Virus record (IMG/VR): IMGVR_UViG_2537562231_000020
DNA from: a virus
Taxonomy: Duplodnaviria > Heunggongvirae > Uroviricota > Caudoviricetes
Length of the DNA: 7,934 nt
Reading direction: 5' to 3' (one strand)
Part shown: positions 1-5,284 of the stretch, piece by piece
How positions within the stretch are numbered: the first letter of the stretch is position 1
How the letters are laid out: the number at the start of each line of letters is the position of its first letter
Notes under the pieces: model-generated
Databases searched by the model: none
What the model was told of the DNA's origin: nothing
What the model saw: the letters and a program-made list of their open reading frames with translations, nothing else
Translations under genes and position numbers: made by a program

Positions 1-299
1 ATCTGCAGGCCTGCCATAACATTACCGTACGCAGAGTAATATGCCCCACCGTACATTACCTGCCTGTTCTCTGCTCCCAGCCTGATATCCTGGATATATC
101 GGGAATCCGCATCCTGCTGTGTTATACCAGAAGTGATGTTTATGTCCTGCGTCCCGTCAAAGGGAACCCCATTAATATTTCTTGGGGTGGCGAGTCTATT
201 CGCGGCAACGGCGGTGCCGTCCGATGGCAGAGCATTCGCCGCCCTGTTTACCGTTTCCCGTAAACCGAGGTTTTCAGGAAAGCCAGGATTAACTCTGTT
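1..299 (-). CDS. Tail fibre protein, C-terminal variable segment (partial; no start codon; silent alternative copy inside an invertible segment)
   Basis: Minus-strand frame is open from 299 to the window edge, directly after an in-frame TAA (302..300). Translation: NRVNPGFPENLGLRETVNRAANALPSDGTAVAANRLATPRNINGVPFDGTQDINITSGITQQDADSRYIQDIRLGAENRQVMYGGAYYSAYGNVMAGLQ. It contains the phage tail-fibre repeat signature (RLATPRNINGVPFDGTQDINIT). No ATG/GTG/TTG lies in frame near its 5' end, and the frame runs through the 26-bp crossover site. Not in the ORF track because it has no start. Confidence 0.6.
255..280. other. 26-bp crossover site for a Gin/Hin/Pin-type invertase (gix/hix-like), right boundary of the invertible tail-fibre segment
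   Basis: TTCCCGTAAACC-GA-GGTTTTCAGGAA is an imperfect palindrome: two 12-bp half-sites (10/12 identical as inverted repeats) around a 2-bp core. It closely matches the gix left site as I recall it (TTCCTGTAAACCGAGGTTTTGGATAA). It lies 66 bp upstream of the invertase start and inside the tail-fibre reading frame. Confidence 0.7.
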
Positions 300-345
300 T
301 TATTCCTCATGCGACAATTCCGGCTTTTTATAATAAGGAAATCGT

Positions 346-918
346 ATGCTGATTGGGTATATCAGGGTGTCAACAAATGACCAGAATACGGCGCTACAAA
401 GAAATGCGCTGGAATGTGCAGGATGTGAGCTGTTTTTCGAAGACAGAATAAGCGGTAAGACAAGGGAGCGTCCCGGACTTAAACGCGCATTAAAGCGACT
501 CCGGCCAGGGGATACCCTGCTGGTCTGGAAACTGGATCGCCTTGGACGCAGTATGCAGCACCTTGTCCTTTTAACAGAAGAACTCCGGCAACGCGGCGTT
601 AACTTCCGCAGCATTACGGACAATATTGATACATCCACTCCCATGGGACGTTTCTTTTTCCATATAATGGGCGCGCTGGCGGAAATGGAGCGGGAACTCA
701 TTATTGAACGTACACGCGCGGGTCTTGCTGCTGCCCGTGCTCAGGGGCGTCATGGCGGCAGACCTCAGAAACTGACAGAGAAAGAGCGGGAGCAAATCGC
801 CCGTTTGCTGGCTAATGGCGAGTCCCGTAAACAAATCGCACTGATATTTGATATTGGCCTTTCCACCCTTTATCGTTATTTTCCTGCCTCACCAGCTCCG
901 TCACCAAAAGTACCGTGA
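346..918 (+). CDS. pin: Serine recombinase, DNA invertase of the Hin/Gin/Pin/Cin family
   Basis: 190-aa ORF with RBS AAGGA at 334-338. N-terminus MLIGYIRVSTNDQNTALQRNALECAGCE carries the catalytic serine motif; GDTLLVWKLDRLGRS, MGRFFFHIMGALAEMERELIIERTRAGL and a C-terminal HTH (KQIALIFDIGLSTLYRY) match the E. coli PinE sequence I recall over most of the length. Confidence 0.93.
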   Translation: MLIGYIRVSTNDQNTALQRNALECAGCELFFEDRISGKTRERPGLKRALKRLRPGDTLLVWKLDRLGRSMQHLVLLTEELRQRGVNFRSITDNIDTSTPMGRFFFHIMGALAEMERELIIERTRAGLAAARAQGRHGGRPQKLTEKEREQIARLLANGESRKQIALIFDIGLSTLYRYFPASPAPSPKVP

Positions 919-1003
919 CGCTTTTTTGAATTTCCGCAAAACACATATTTTTCAGCGGTCGCTATTCTGACTCTGTTTAATTCAGAAACAGGCAGAAAAG
1001 ACG

Positions 1004-3058
1004 ATGTCAGACTCCAAGTGGAAAATGCTCTCCGCCATGCCCGGAGAGTTTTCAGTCAAGGTTGCCGGTGGCACGGTGGCATTTATTGAAAGCCCTTTCC
1101 GCCCTTCGGGTAATAAAGGGGGGATCACCTTCGCAGACTGCGTGATCCGCTTCAGCACGAAAGAGCCATTATGGGTAATGCCGGTATCCGGTAATCCCAG
1201 TGCAGAAATCACCAGTTCAGGCGTGACTGGCATCATTCCAATCACATCTGACGTGGCCGGAACGCTCACGCCCTCCGACTGGAATGCACCGGATAACGCC
1301 GGGCCTTCCGGTAGCACGAATGGCAGCAGTTCAGAGCCGGAATATTACTTTGTTGTCATTCTCGCGGGTCAGTCAAATGGCATGGCCTACGGCGAGGGGC
1401 TGCCGTTACCGGATTCGTTTGACCGCCCGGACCCACGCATTAAGCAACTGGCACGCCGCAGTACGGTAACGCCCAACGGTACGTCGTGTACATACAACGA
1501 CATCATTCCGGCAGACCACTGCCTGCATGATGTTCAGGATATGAGCGGGATAAACCACCCGAAAGCTGATCTGGCAAAAGGCCAGTACGGGACTGTCGGT
1601 CAGGGGTTGCATATTGCCAAAAAACTGCTTCCCTATATCCCACAGAATGCCGGGATACTTCTGGTGCCCTGTTGTCGTGGCGGGTCAGCATTCACCACTG
1701 GAGCCGACGGCTCATTCAGTGAGGCCAGCGGTGCTTCCGCTGATTCTTCACGCTGGGGGGCCGGTAAACCTCTGTATCAGGACCTGGTAAGCCGCACCAA
1801 AGTCGCGCTGGCGAAAAACCCGAAAAACAAACTTCTGGCTGTGGTCTGGATGCAGGGAGAGGCAGACCTTGCCTCAGGAAGCCAGCAGCATAATAGTTTA
1901 TTCACGGCCATGGTTCAGCAGTTCAGAACTGACCTGGCTCCGCTTGCTGCGCAGTGCGTGAGTGGAAATGCCACCACGGTGCCGTGGATTTGCGGTGATA
2001 CCACGTATTACTGGAAAAACGCTGGCACCGATAAATATGAGGCAGTATACGGTGGCTACAAAGGCAAGGAAGCACAGAAAATTTTCTTTGTACCGTTCCT
2101 GACGGATGAGAATGGACAGAGCACGCCAACGAATGCTCCGGCGGAAGACCCGGATATTGTGGCTGTCGGGTATTACGGTGCAGCATCCCGAACCCAGGGC
2201 AGTTTTGTTTCGACACAGCGTGACAGCCATTTCAGCTCATGGGCACGCAGGGGCGTCATTTCAGACCGTCTGGCCTCAGCTATTATGCTCCATGCAGGGC
2301 GCACGGCTGAACTGATGCGCGGGCAGACCGTGACACCACCGGATGAGAAGCCGTCACCTGATACACCATCAAAACCGTCCACGCCACCCGCAGACACCAC
2401 GACGATGAGTACGCTATTTGCTTACCGGGCATCTGAGTCTGAAGGACGGTTGACACCACAGGGTTGGGCTGCCGGAGGTGGCAAGGCTCAAATCGTGGAT
2501 GATGCCGGAGCCAGCGGGGGTAAGGCAATGAAACTGACCAAGGAAACAGGAAGAGCCCCCTGGTACCTTGAGCATGATGCTGGTAATGGTGCGGACCTGC
2601 TGGGTAAAGGTGGTCTTGTCAGTTGTCGTTTTAAACTCGATGGCGCGCTTACGGCTAATCAGTACGCACTGGCGCTGTACTGGCCGGTTTCTGCCCTGCC
2701 GCAAGGGGTTACTCTGGAAGGAAATGCCGGTCATAACCTGCTGGCATCGTTCTACGTACAGAGCGATGCCACAGACCTTAACGTGATGTATCACAAAGGA
2801 AACACGGCGCAGAACACGAAGCTGGGGTCATTCGGCGCATTTAATAACGAATGGCATACGCTGGGCTTCCGTTTTGCCGGTAACAACAGTATTGAGGTGA
2901 CGCCGGTCATTGATGGTAAGGACGGGACACCATTCATGCTGTCGCAGTCTCCGGTCGGCACGTTTACGGCAGACAAGTTGCGCGTGACCGATATCACTAA
3001 AAATGCGACTTACCCGGTACTGATTGACAGTATCGTGGTGGAAGTGAATAACGCGTAA
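1004..3058 (+). CDS. SASA/SGNH-type carbohydrate O-acetylesterase (prophage NanS-p-like 9-O-acetyl-sialate esterase) with Pro/Thr linker and C-terminal lectin-like domain
   Basis: 684-aa ORF. Catalytic block VVILAGQSNGMAYGEG (GQSN motif) and downstream VVWMQGEADL (QGE-x-D block) are the signatures of the sialate O-acetylesterase (SASA/DUF303) family. A Pro/Thr-rich linker (PPDEKPSPDTPSKPSTPPADTTT, about nt 2336-2410) precedes a roughly 200-aa beta-rich C-terminal domain that looks lectin or ConA-like. Size and layout resemble the prophage NanS-p esterases of enterohaemorrhagic E. coli. Confidence 0.75.
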   Translation: MSDSKWKMLSAMPGEFSVKVAGGTVAFIESPFRPSGNKGGITFADCVIRFSTKEPLWVMPVSGNPSAEITSSGVTGIIPITSDVAGTLTPSDWNAPDNAGPSGSTNGSSSEPEYYFVVILAGQSNGMAYGEGLPLPDSFDRPDPRIKQLARRSTVTPNGTSCTYNDIIPADHCLHDVQDMSGINHPKADLAKGQYGTVGQGLHIAKKLLPYIPQNAGILLVPCCRGGSAFTTGADGSFSEASGASADSSRWGAGKPLYQDLVSRTKVALAKNPKNKLLAVVWMQGEADLASGSQQHNSLFTAMVQQFRTDLAPLAAQCVSGNATTVPWICGDTTYYWKNAGTDKYEAVYGGYKGKEAQKIFFVPFLTDENGQSTPTNAPAEDPDIVAVGYYGAASRTQGSFVSTQRDSHFSSWARRGVISDRLASAIMLHAGRTAELMRGQTVTPPDEKPSPDTPSKPSTPPADTTTMSTLFAYRASESEGRLTPQGWAAGGGKAQIVDDAGASGGKAMKLTKETGRAPWYLEHDAGNGADLLGKGGLVSCRFKLDGALTANQYALALYWPVSALPQGVTLEGNAGHNLLASFYVQSDATDLNVMYHKGNTAQNTKLGSFGAFNNEWHTLGFRFAGNNSIEVTPVIDGKDGTPFMLSQSPVGTFTADKLRVTDITKNATYPVLIDSIVVEVNNA

Positions 3059-3073
3059 GCAGGATAAAAAAAT

Positions 3074-3106
3074 GCCGCCGGTAAGGGAAAACAAGAAACC
3101 GGCGGC
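3074..3106. terminator. Stem-loop just downstream of the esterase gene; likely a transcript terminator, orientation ambiguous
   Basis: Perfect 9-bp stem GCCGCCGGT (3074-3082) / ACCGGCGGC (3098-3106) with a 15-nt loop. It is flanked by an A7 run upstream (3066-3072) and AAAAAG downstream, so the U-tract is on the minus-strand side. Confidence 0.35.
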
Positions 3107-3202
3107 AAAAAGATCGTTATATCCAAAGCAAAAAATGCAGTGCACCTTTTTACCTAACAGATATTACCGGTGTCAACACCATGTCAATAATTGGGAGGGA
3201 TA

Positions 3203-3385
3203 ATGACATTTTTACAGCTTATTTTATTGTATTTCTGCACGGCAGTATGTGCGTTATATCTGGTGAGTGGTGGTTATAAGGCCATCAGAAATTATGTTCG
3301 CCGCAAAATTGAGGACGCAGCAGCTGAAAAACTCAGTAAAACAGCGCAGGTAACTCCGCTCCCAAAAGACCCGACCCAGCCCTGA
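3203..3385 (+). CDS. Hypothetical small membrane protein (single N-terminal transmembrane helix)
   Basis: ATG at 3203 preceded by GGGAGGG (3193-3199). The ORF track starts it at TTG 3191; I prefer the ATG. Product MTFLQLILLYFCTAVCALYLVSGGYKAIRNYVRRKIEDAAAEKLSKTAQVTPLPKDPTQP has a hydrophobic N-terminus and a charged tail. I recognise no family. Confidence 0.45.
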   Translation: MTFLQLILLYFCTAVCALYLVSGGYKAIRNYVRRKIEDAAAEKLSKTAQVTPLPKDPTQP

Positions 3386-3420
3386 TTGCAGGGCTTTATT
3401 CCCGCATAAGGAGGATATAC

Positions 3421-3675
3421 ATGCCAGAAATTAAAGGCACCGTCACTGAAGACCTGGTAAAACAGGCACTGTATTCCGGTGAAGTAAATAAGTTGCTGAA
3501 AGCGCAGGTCCGCAAGGATTTTGAGGCACAAATCGACACTTACGTTGATGAAGTGCTGGCAAAACTTATTGGGCCAGCAGTTGCGGCCAGTGATGCTGAT
3601 AATGAGCCGAAAACCGACGCGCAGCCAGAGCAACCAGACCCGGCTCAGCCCGGAACTGACAGTACCATGATGTAA
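3421..3675 (+). CDS. Hypothetical small acidic protein
   Basis: 84-aa ORF with a strong RBS (AAGGAGG about 8 nt upstream of the ATG). Helical-looking N-terminal half and an acidic, Pro/Gln-rich, probably disordered C-terminal tail. I recognise no family. Confidence 0.5.
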   Translation: MPEIKGTVTEDLVKQALYSGEVNKLLKAQVRKDFEAQIDTYVDEVLAKLIGPAVAASDADNEPKTDAQPEQPDPAQPGTDSTMM

Positions 3676-3680
3676 CAATA

Positions 3681-3708
3681 CAAACCGGTGGTGTCCTCTG
3701 CCGGTTTG
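3681..3708. terminator. Hairpin between convergent genes (possible bidirectional terminator)
   Basis: Perfect 8-bp stem CAAACCGG (3681-3688) / CCGGTTTG (3701-3708) with a 12-nt loop, 6 nt after the stop of the 84-aa ORF and upstream of the convergent minus-strand gene end at 3843. U-tract is weak. Confidence 0.3.
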
Positions 3709-3842
3709 ACACTAATGAAAACATCTTTGCCGCTATCCAGCCATATGTAATCGCTGGATAGTATTTCGTATTCAGAAATATAGCTGCTTATGGAGCAGTC
3801 AATCCTGCTTCCCCATCCGGGCAGGCAAATGAACCGGTATCA

Positions 3843-4136
3843 TTAGTCCGATTCACGCTTTTGTAGAATCGTTCCCAGAATGCTATACAGCTCATTAGCC
3901 TGTTGCTCCATCATTGAGACGGAGGCTATACGGTGCAAAGTGATTTCAGGAGGTGGCACACCTCCATCTTCTTGCTGTGGAGGAAAAACATAAGATTTAA
4001 TAAAAAAGTTGAAGCATATGAACTCTCCCGCACTCGAACTGTATTTGCAGGCATCTGAATAATCGGAAAAATAATCATTATAGATTTCCGCATTTTCAAT
4101 CATTTTTCGATTTCTCGTCGTTACATGATTGTCCAT
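3843..4136 (-). CDS. Hypothetical protein, low-GC moron-like gene
   Basis: 97-aa minus-strand ORF with RBS AAGAGG 7-8 nt upstream of the ATG (complement of 4137-4150). Markedly AT-rich relative to flanking phage genes. Divergent from com/mom with its own AT-rich upstream region. I recognise no family. Confidence 0.5.
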   Translation of the reverse strand: MDNHVTTRNRKMIENAEIYNDYFSDYSDACKYSSSAGEFICFNFFIKSYVFPPQQEDGGVPPPEITLHRIASVSMMEQQANELYSILGTILQKRESD

Positions 4137-4392
4137 AGCAGCCTCTTACGCTGGCAATTAACCAATTGACTTCTATAAATTAGTTGATTTGTTTGCTTTG
4201 CGGTATTCAAATGTACAATCATTCAGCACTTATGCGTTACAGCACCGTTTAAAATTAGTGATCAAACTCATAAATTTTCGCTAATGACATTTCGTGTTAT
4301 TTGTTGTATCAATTAAATAAATCAAATCGATCGTTTTTGTCGATCGATTGAGTGATAAAGATATCAACAACAAAGCAGGAGGTTATGCGGCC
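4137..4392. promoter_or_regulatory. AT-rich divergent intergenic control region with a GATC triad and an ATCGATCG/CGATCGAT palindrome upstream of com
   Basis: 256-bp AT-rich spacer between divergent genes. Sigma70-like hexamers are present (for example TTTGCT 4192-4197 with TACAAT 4214-4219; ATGACA 4284-4289 with TATCAA 4307-4312). Three GATC sites at 4260, 4329 and 4342; the last two sit in the inverted repeat ATCGATCG (4326-4333) ... CGATCGAT (4341-4348). Exact promoter positions are not determinable by eye. Confidence 0.4.
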
Positions 4393-4593
4393 ATGTATCG
4401 AAACATACGGTGCCGACATTGTAACAAGCTACTGGCACGAGCCAGCTTCAGTTATCTGGAAGTTAAATGTCCGCGCTGTAAAACCCTCAATCAAATCACA
4501 TCTCAGAGCGCCACAGAGCACCCCACATACACAAGGAAATCCTGTCGTGGGGAACAGAAAGCAAGTTACATCCCGTATCATCAGCACGCCTGA
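4393..4593 (+). CDS. com: Com-like zinc-finger translational activator
   Basis: ATG at 4393 with RBS AGGAGG (4377-4382). Product [32 protein letters not shown]... has the paired C-x2-C zinc-finger layout and near-identical spacing to phage Mu Com as I recall it (IRCKNCNKLL...IEVRCPRCK). The ORF-track start at TTG 4348 is an upstream extension I consider unlikely. Confidence 0.85.
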
Positions 4594-5284
4594 ACTTATT
4601 CACTATAACGACAATATCGTCGGTTATGGCTCCCGTGAGTTACGGGTTGAGACAATAAGTTGCTGGCTGGCCCGGCTGGTCGTCGTCAATAAACATTACA
4701 GCCATCGTTTCGTAAATAATTCCTACCTTCATCTGGGCATATTTTCAGAACGGGAGCTGGTTGGCGTAATGCAATGGGGTTATGCCCTTAATCCAAACAA
4801 TGGTGCACGCGTCGTAACTGGCACGCAGAACCGCGAATATATGGAGCTTAACCGGTTATGGCTGCATGACTGTATGCCGAGAAACTCCGAATCAAGGGCA
4901 ATCAGTTACGCGCTCAAACTAATCAGACAACTTTATCCGCAGGTGCAGTGGGTTCAGTCGTTTGCAGATGAGCGTTGTGGCTGTCTTGGTGTCGTGTACC
5001 AGGCAAGCAATTTTGATTATGTAGGCAGTCATGAAACAACATTCTATGAACTTGATGGCGAGTGGTATCACGAGATTTGCAAGAATGCAATCAAACGAGG
5101 AGGACAGCGAGGTGAACATCTGCGGGCTAATATCGACAGAGCCAGTGTTCATAAATTCCGTCAGTTTCGTTACATCCGGTTTCTGGACAAGAGAGCCAGA
5201 AAACGCCTTAACACAAAGCTATTCAAAGTCCAGCCTTACCCAAAACCACAAACAGTTAAAACTGGTTTGAAAGAGAGTGAATGA
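4547..5284 (+). CDS. mom: Mom-like DNA modification protein (acyltransferase-type adenine modification; anti-restriction)
   Basis: Long ORF in a different frame overlapping the 3' end of com, as in the Mu com-mom operon, and sitting downstream of a Gin-family invertase as in Mu. 3' end is firm (stop 5282-5284). The start is uncertain: I placed it at GTG 4547, which is in frame with AAGGA 9 nt upstream, giving 245 aa; the first in-frame ATG is much further downstream. Assignment is mainly by gene context; I could not verify the Mom sequence from memory. Confidence 0.6.

Follow-up and report, generated by a model that had tools for sequence, protein, structure and literature searches.

A com-mom operon of the phage Mu type, with a predicted Com-responsive RNA switch, at the right end of an Sp18-type Mu-like prophage of Escherichia coli

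The viral DNA described here (IMG/VR record IMGVR_UViG_2537562231_000020, 7,934 nucleotides, referred to at its full length as the window) carries at positions 4393-5284 a pair of overlapping genes which, as far as their sequence allows one to judge, form the com-mom operon carried by a Mu-like transposable E. coli prophage of the Sp18 type, most likely working as it does in phage Mu; the probability of this reading is put at roughly 0.9. Both are genuine genes and not chance open reading frames. This copy belongs to an already known system, real but ordinary, and both the mechanism and the structure of its enzyme have been published.

The first gene, com, runs on the plus strand from ATG 4393 to TGA 4591-4593 and encodes a zinc-ribbon protein of 66 residues, for which RefSeq has a coding sequence with the same coordinates (WP_014334043.1); a ribosome-binding site, AGGAGG, can be read at 4377-4382 of the same strand, 10 nt before the ATG. 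The second, mom, extends on the plus strand from GTG 4547 to TGA 5282-5284, in a different frame, and encodes a GNAT-family enzyme of 245 residues. com lies immediately upstream of mom, and the two share 47 nt (4547-4593). The preliminary description had noted a Com-like zinc-finger frame overlapping a Mom frame of about 245 residues, as in Mu, and on this point profiles, coordinates and overlap all agree. In other E. coli genomes, the RefSeq annotation of identical DNA has coding sequences that map exactly to 4393-4593 and 4547-5284, and the identical proteins are already named Com and Mom there. The RefSeq product name of Com is, however, "DNA-binding transcriptional regulator", which disagrees with the literature, where Com is an RNA-binding translational activator (PMC6483171). 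The PHROGs families "gpCom control of modification" and "Mom-like DNA modification protein" were also matched. A search of NCBIfam returned no model matching Com or Mom, so that the RefSeq names must derive from other rules. Over the whole window, neither an Rfam search at gathering thresholds nor a search for tRNA genes returned anything. As a separate observation, strain JE86-ST05 carries a near-identical copy (L003, 7393-7592) whose annotation shows a frameshift in com and a later start for mom.

The evidence for the identity of Mom is extensive. The protein matches the Pfam family Mom (PF25680) with 261.2 bits against a cut-off of 27.1 (7.8e-78), over profile positions 1-202 of 202; it is 78% identical to Mu Mom, and it aligns without gaps to the crystallized Mu protein (chain 8bv8_A, E 2.4e-123) over residues 5-233, that is, over the GNAT core and its insertion. 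The profile search of the 4547-5284 translation thus recovered the Mom family together with the solved Mu sequence, and nothing in it spoke against the assignment proposed earlier. Mu Mom is a GNAT-fold dimer with a helix-turn-helix-like insertion proposed to contact the DNA major groove (PMC13219725, 2026), and by homology the window protein is predicted to have the same fold and the same insertion. Compared with close relatives whose synonymous divergence is about 0.15-0.22, mom has dN/dS values of 0.04-0.08, from which it follows that the gene is under strong purifying selection.

Does the enzyme also carry out the Mu reaction? Mu Mom moves glycine from Gly-tRNA(Gly) onto N6 of adenine in double-stranded DNA, and a subsequent rearrangement on the base yields N6-carbamoylmethyl-adenine (PMC13219725). 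Its target context is SAS. Mutation of W48, H58, Y59, R111, S124, D149, R151, Y159 or W181 abolishes or strongly lowers the activity of the Mu enzyme, and within this set the R111, S124, D149 and R151 mutations abolish or greatly reduce it (PMC13219725). In the alignment to Mu Mom, the equivalent residues of the window protein, W40, H50, Y51, R103, S116, D141, R143, Y151 and W173, are all identical. By analogy, the product of 4547-5284 is predicted to be a glycyl-tRNA(Gly)-dependent modifier of adenine N6 in double-stranded DNA. Another chemistry, or another DNA sequence specificity, could be sought in the 22% of residues that differ from Mu Mom, and in particular in the insertion (Mu residues ∼175-209), where 28 of the 35 residues are identical and seven differ, in a part of the protein that is proposed to touch DNA (PMC13219725). 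Yet every residue needed for the activity of Mu Mom is identical, and the gap-free alignment with the crystallized protein spans the core and the insertion alike. In general, changes of co-substrate are rare at 78% identity. A departure from the Mu chemistry or specificity is consequently regarded as very unlikely. The preliminary description had suggested that the chemistry might not be that of Mu Mom, a suggestion made improbable by the conservation of all tested functional residues and by the Mu chemistry and structure published in 2026 (PMC13219725). It had also counted the enzyme among poorly characterized Mom-like proteins outside the Mu-type phages, and this does not hold: the gene sits at the right end of a Mu-like prophage, its product is 78% identical to the Mu protein, and RefSeq already calls it Mom.

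Com is less conserved, with 44% identity to Mu Com, although it is recognized by the Pfam family Zn_ribbon_Com (PF10122; 48.2 bits, cut-off 22.9, 7.5e-13). Its four putative zinc ligands, C7, C10, C26 and C29 (CxxC...CxxC), line up with the cysteines of Mu Com, so that an inspection of the ligand spacing gave no reason to abandon the assignment. The cysteine pairs are separated by 15 residues, compared with 16 in Mu, and the shorter spacing is shared by most of the Com relatives listed. By analogy with Mu, Com is predicted to be an RNA-binding translational activator of mom.

From 4386 to 4660, the mom frame contains no ATG, GTG or TTG apart from GTG 4547; this codon is preceded by AAGGAA with a spacing of 9 nt. 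The Mu reference record gives Mom 241 residues, counted from an ATG, whereas the literature on Mu puts the start of mom at a GUG within the stem of a hairpin that inhibits translation (PMC6483171). GTG 4547 aligns exactly with codon 11 of this longer form, which is the GUG named as the start in PMC6483171. Mu Mom without the first 10 residues of the 241-residue form remains active (PMC13219725). The non-ATG start at 4547 that had been proposed for this gene is therefore the one adopted here, being the sole candidate in that interval and aligned with the Mu GUG.

The mom frame is also open for 65 codons upstream of GTG 4547 (4352-4546), across the whole of com, which gives a nominal open reading frame of 310 residues. 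This raised the possibility of a longer Mom with its start at GTG 4352 or at ATG 4385, which was rejected: the corresponding frame is closed in Mu, where two stops interrupt it; no more than 2 nt separate ATG 4385 from the AGGAGG of com; and the Mu enzyme is active without the 10 residues that precede its GUG. An open stretch of 65 codons has, by our own estimate of (61/64)^65, a chance of about 4%, and the open mom frame over com is probably fortuitous.

The RNA around the GUG can be folded into the structure expected from Mu. A translation-inhibition hairpin is predicted at 4521-4552 (plus strand), in which CCCCAC (4521-4526) pairs with GUGGGG (4547-4552), so that the mom start codon lies in the 3' arm, while the AGGA of the mom ribosome-binding site (4534-4537) lies in an inner stem. 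The hairpin occupies the same place as the Mu hairpin that includes the GUG start (PMC6483171). The fold of 4517-4553 has a predicted energy of -12.6 kcal/mol and a z-score of -1.95; z-scores of single-sequence folds here are modest, from -1.4 to -1.95. Directly upstream, on the same strand, is the predicted Com binding site, GAGCGCC-ACA-GAGCACC at 4506-4522. SELEX has defined the Com motif as GAGNNCC(N)2-3GAGNNCC (PMC6483171), and the window contains a single match to this bipartite motif, at the expected place, where 0.028 matches would be expected per window; CCACAGAG, at 4511-4518, falls within it. The folding check suggested earlier thus yielded what had been anticipated, a predicted start-sequestering hairpin with a Com motif immediately 5' of it.

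Comparison of relatives adds to this picture. For this purpose, the junction region of 80 related loci from viral contigs was condensed into a set of 16 distinct sequences. Across these 16 relatives, each of the four stem pairs of the Com-target hairpin has changed on both sides, in a compensatory manner. In the inhibitory hairpin, the six stem pairs are kept in 16 of 16, and the outermost alternates between U:A, the Mu type, and C:G, the window type. As a control, shifting the stem partners by 1-3 columns abolishes the covariation signal. The covariation events are not fully independent, given that the 16 sequences fall into few clades and that the stems lie in doubly coding sequence. The Com-target stem of this lineage contains a C.A mismatch at 4509/4520, which accounts for the only unpaired cells in the alignment of the relatives, and the predicted hairpin reaches only -1.7 kcal/mol. 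The two elements are intertwined: the last two bases of the Com element are the first two bases of the inhibitory stem, and C4521 has two possible partners, G4508 of the Com hairpin and G4552 of the inhibitory one, with both of which it covaries. This alternative pairing, together with the covariation, fits a competition between the two structures.

Is Com binding really what switches mom on? Perhaps the switch is instead mainly a matter of translational coupling, with the ribosomes that translate com melting the hairpin 4521-4552 as they pass. The geometry invites this idea, because com ends at 4593, 47 nt past the mom start, and every ribosome on com must unwind the hairpin. However, the geometry of Mu is the same, and there activation is attributed to Com acting at the upstream hairpin (PMC6483171, PMC3378877). 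Moreover, coupling alone requires neither a conserved Com motif nor a covarying stem. Coupling as the main switch is therefore considered unlikely, and activation by Com binding, as in Mu, is preferred.

Set beside the com-mom operon of Mu (Mup54/Mup55; Mom PDB 8bv8), the window copy has the same gene order, an overlap of the same kind and the same place next to the right phage end. It also shares the GUG start in the 3' arm of a CCCAC/GUGGG-type hairpin, a Com target of the form CC(N)3GAG immediately before this hairpin, and, ahead of com, an inverted repeat with two GATC sites. The differences, beyond the low identity and the tighter cysteine spacing of Com, are several: the inhibitory hairpin has one additional G:C pair and a 20-nt loop with an inner stem, compared with an 11-nt loop in Mu; the Com-target stem of the window lineage has its C.A mismatch; two of the three Mu GATC sites are kept, and the com ATG stands 26 nt closer to the last of them; and Mom has 12 extra C-terminal residues. 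All of these are details, and the kind of system is unchanged.

Transcription is the weakest part of the explanation. In Mu, transcription of mom depends on Dam methylation and OxyR at upstream GATC sites and on the late activator C at a weak promoter (PMC3378877). In the window, a perfect 9-bp inverted repeat, AATCGATCG-N7-CGATCGATT, is found at 4325-4349; it holds two GATC (Dam) sites, at 4329 and 4342, 13 nt apart, and aligns to AATCGATC-N10-GATCGATT of Mu. The repeat corresponds to the group of GATC sites that precedes com in Mu and through which Dam methylation and OxyR act there. Diverse relatives likewise have, upstream of com, two GATC sites at a distance of about 13 nt. In the window as a whole, GATC is strongly depleted (11 sites, against 27.7 ± 4.9 expected from shuffles), and three of the 11, at 4260, 4329 and 4342, lie within 86 bp upstream of com.

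The activator is harder to place. After its GATC cluster, Mu has a TTAT-N6-ATAA dyad, taken here to be the Mu C box, and then a T6 run and a weak -10 element; no such dyad was found between the GATC cluster and com in the window. A scan for sigma-70 promoters on the plus strand upstream of com found none, which fits an activator-dependent promoter and proves nothing. A comparison by eye of the region upstream of com with the upstream regions of lysis genes, in the full prophage and in Mu, gave no defensible shared activator box. The C homologue of the prophage, a member of the Mor/C family, is only 40% identical to Mu C, so that a different activator box is possible. One element is shared: AAGATA stands at the same distance from the com start as the TAAGAT -10 element of Mu, and its position suggests a com-mom transcription start near 4369. 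With a start there, the GATC palindrome would stand where Mu has its C box.

The operon lies at the end of a mobile element. Window positions 1-5412 are the right end of a 39-kb Mu-like transposable prophage, and this stretch is 99.9-100% identical to the same end of prophages in many E. coli genomes. The identity to other E. coli copies ends at 5412, the last base of the element, and beyond it each genome has a different host flank, as seen for the window, AF39, JE86, CI5, F7508 and M3; so many different insertion sites imply recent transposition. The com-mom stretch is present in 233 of 5,426 complete E. coli genomes (∼4%), including O157:H7. The full element, as found in strain AF39, is 39,074 bp long and interrupts dcyD. 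It carries genes for a Mu-type transposase, an AAA ATPase in the MuB position, Gam, Kil and a Mu-like head protein, together with contractile-tail and baseplate genes; its Mor/C-family activator gene lies just before the lysozyme gene, as in Mu. Among the Sp18-type Mu-like prophages of Shiga-toxin-producing and other E. coli, O157:H7 included, the com-mom region is 95.7-100% identical to that of the window, with essentially no difference; the window is a copy of that element, except for its junction with a tape-measure gene. Sp18-like Mu-like phages are reported in published surveys to transpose, often landing inside other prophages, Stx phages among them (PMC10132054, PMC7430833).

A copy lodged in this way might be thought of as a decaying, non-functional remnant in a dead prophage, the more so as the surrounding prophage is itself disrupted and as one genome, JE86, has its com annotated as frameshifted. 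Yet both reading frames are intact in the window and 100% identical to copies in complete 39-kb prophages, the dN/dS of mom is as low as 0.04-0.08, and the element is found at many different sites, which implies recent transposition. The idea of a decayed operon is accordingly given very little credence, and the reading of com and mom as working genes is retained.

The ends of the element have their own features. In the right end (5285-5412, plus strand), a (G)GTATCAAA motif recurs at 5331, 5365 and 5387, and these repeats probably bind the transposase. The motif TTTGATACC is found near both tips of the prophage, at a distance of 18-26 nt. The right tip reads ...GCGCTATA-3' (window 5401-5412) in six copies (L001, L003, L004, L009, L094 and L097) and ends in TA rather than in the CA of Mu; the left tip is TGTAACC in AF39 and F7508, and TATAACC in JE86. 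For the three insertions with both flanks, the target duplication is 4 bp (TACA in AF39, CGTG in JE86 and ATAA in F7508). Mu, by comparison, has 5'-TG...CA-3' ends and 5-bp duplications. The native base before the duplicated bases is C at both of the sites, out of these three, at which it could be checked, and C also precedes the bases flanking the element in the window. The element clearly behaves like Mu, but its tip and its target stagger differ, the right tip being apparently TA and the duplications apparently 4 bp long.

The observations on the promoter region raise the possibility that Sp18-type com-mom has rewired its transcription compared with Mu, a reading that we hold to be doubtful. 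If it were true, the GATC palindrome would lie over the promoter or over the activator position itself, and Dam methylation and OxyR, or a C homologue of new specificity, would act directly at the promoter.

In the window, the Mu-like element has landed in a lambdoid prophage. At 5413-6944 (plus strand) lie the C-terminal 510 codons of a lambdoid tape-measure gene that the insertion has split. The matches to tape-measure families of Pfam and PHROGs are confined to the C-terminal part of the profiles, and in strain 2013C-4974, where an intact tape-measure gene measures 3243 nt, the base equivalent to 5413 is nt 1712. Mu-end and tape-measure sequence are fused in the open reading frame 5277-6944 (555 residues), a chimera that ought not to be annotated as an intact gene. 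The split presumably inactivated the host lambdoid prophage. This exact junction was absent from the 5,426 complete E. coli genomes searched.

Further genes of the prophage lie upstream of com. A Gin/Pin-type serine invertase is encoded at 346-918, next to the right arm of an 86-nt inverted repeat. This arm lies at 190-275 and is 94% complementary to a partner 1.16 kb upstream in the full prophage; the two arms bound a short invertible tail-fibre segment, the segment being defined by the repeats. No match to a Gin crossover-site consensus was obtained. Three cargo genes stand between the invertase and com, for an SASA/DUF6645 esterase of 684 residues (1004-3058), a DUF1378 protein (3191-3385) and a DUF826 protein (3421-3675), a trio that is typical of the late region of Stx and lambdoid phages. 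In Mu, no more than 95 bp separate gin from com, compared with the 3 kb of cargo genes in the window, and the trio at 1004-3675 therefore looks like a mosaic acquisition by the Mu-like phage. In addition, a minus-strand open reading frame at 3843-4136 (86-97 residues; RefSeq hypothetical protein WP_000571916.1) is transcribed away from com; it matched nothing in Pfam, PHROGs or NCBIfam.

Not every close relative of this Mom comes with a Com. Homologues with 70-76% identity are found in Aeromonas phage pAEv1818 (L006) and in four IMG/VR contigs (L077, L079, L082 and L083). In pAEv1818, a non-Mu phage, mom follows a Q antiterminator gene, and there is no com upstream. The four contigs likewise have no Com frame upstream, and their sequence at the mom start is unrelated to that of the window; most have an ATG near the expected start and one of the four a GUG, and a GATC-containing palindrome lies upstream of mom. 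Such close homologues without com indicate that Mom can be controlled without Com, and that its control there must differ. A separate case is Pseudomonas phage JD024 (L007), in which an unannotated Com-like frame (CxxC...CxxC, 372-590) precedes an annotated Mom homologue; a CC-GC-GAG motif is found there in a 4-bp hairpin, and the ribosome-binding site and AUG of mom lie in a long predicted stem.

How, then, would the operon work? On the model of Mu, a regulated weak promoter somewhere between ∼4298 and 4392, under the probable control of Dam methylation at the two GATC sites and of a phage late activator, would give a single mRNA. com would be translated from ATG 4393, while the GUG of mom and its AGGA would be locked in the hairpin 4521-4552, leaving mom silent by default. 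The four-cysteine zinc ribbon of Com would then bind GAGCGCC-ACA-GAGCACC immediately 5' of the hairpin and open it, and translation could proceed from GUG 4547. Mom, with its predicted GNAT fold, would transfer glycine from Gly-tRNA(Gly) to adenine N6 of double-stranded DNA, presumably in the same sequence context as in Mu, and rearrangement on the base would produce N6-carbamoylmethyl-adenine, which would block many restriction enzymes.

The com-mom operon is a textbook case of layered control over a toxic anti-restriction function, and the significance of the present copy is mainly one of correct annotation. With its covarying stems, it confirms the conservation of the RNA switch in a common lineage of E. 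coli prophages. For specialists in Mu regulation and transposition, the promoter layout, the mismatch in the Com target, the transposon tip and the length of the duplication are possible natural variants. As for the bacteria themselves, strains with an Sp18-type prophage could release phage DNA that is resistant to many restriction enzymes.
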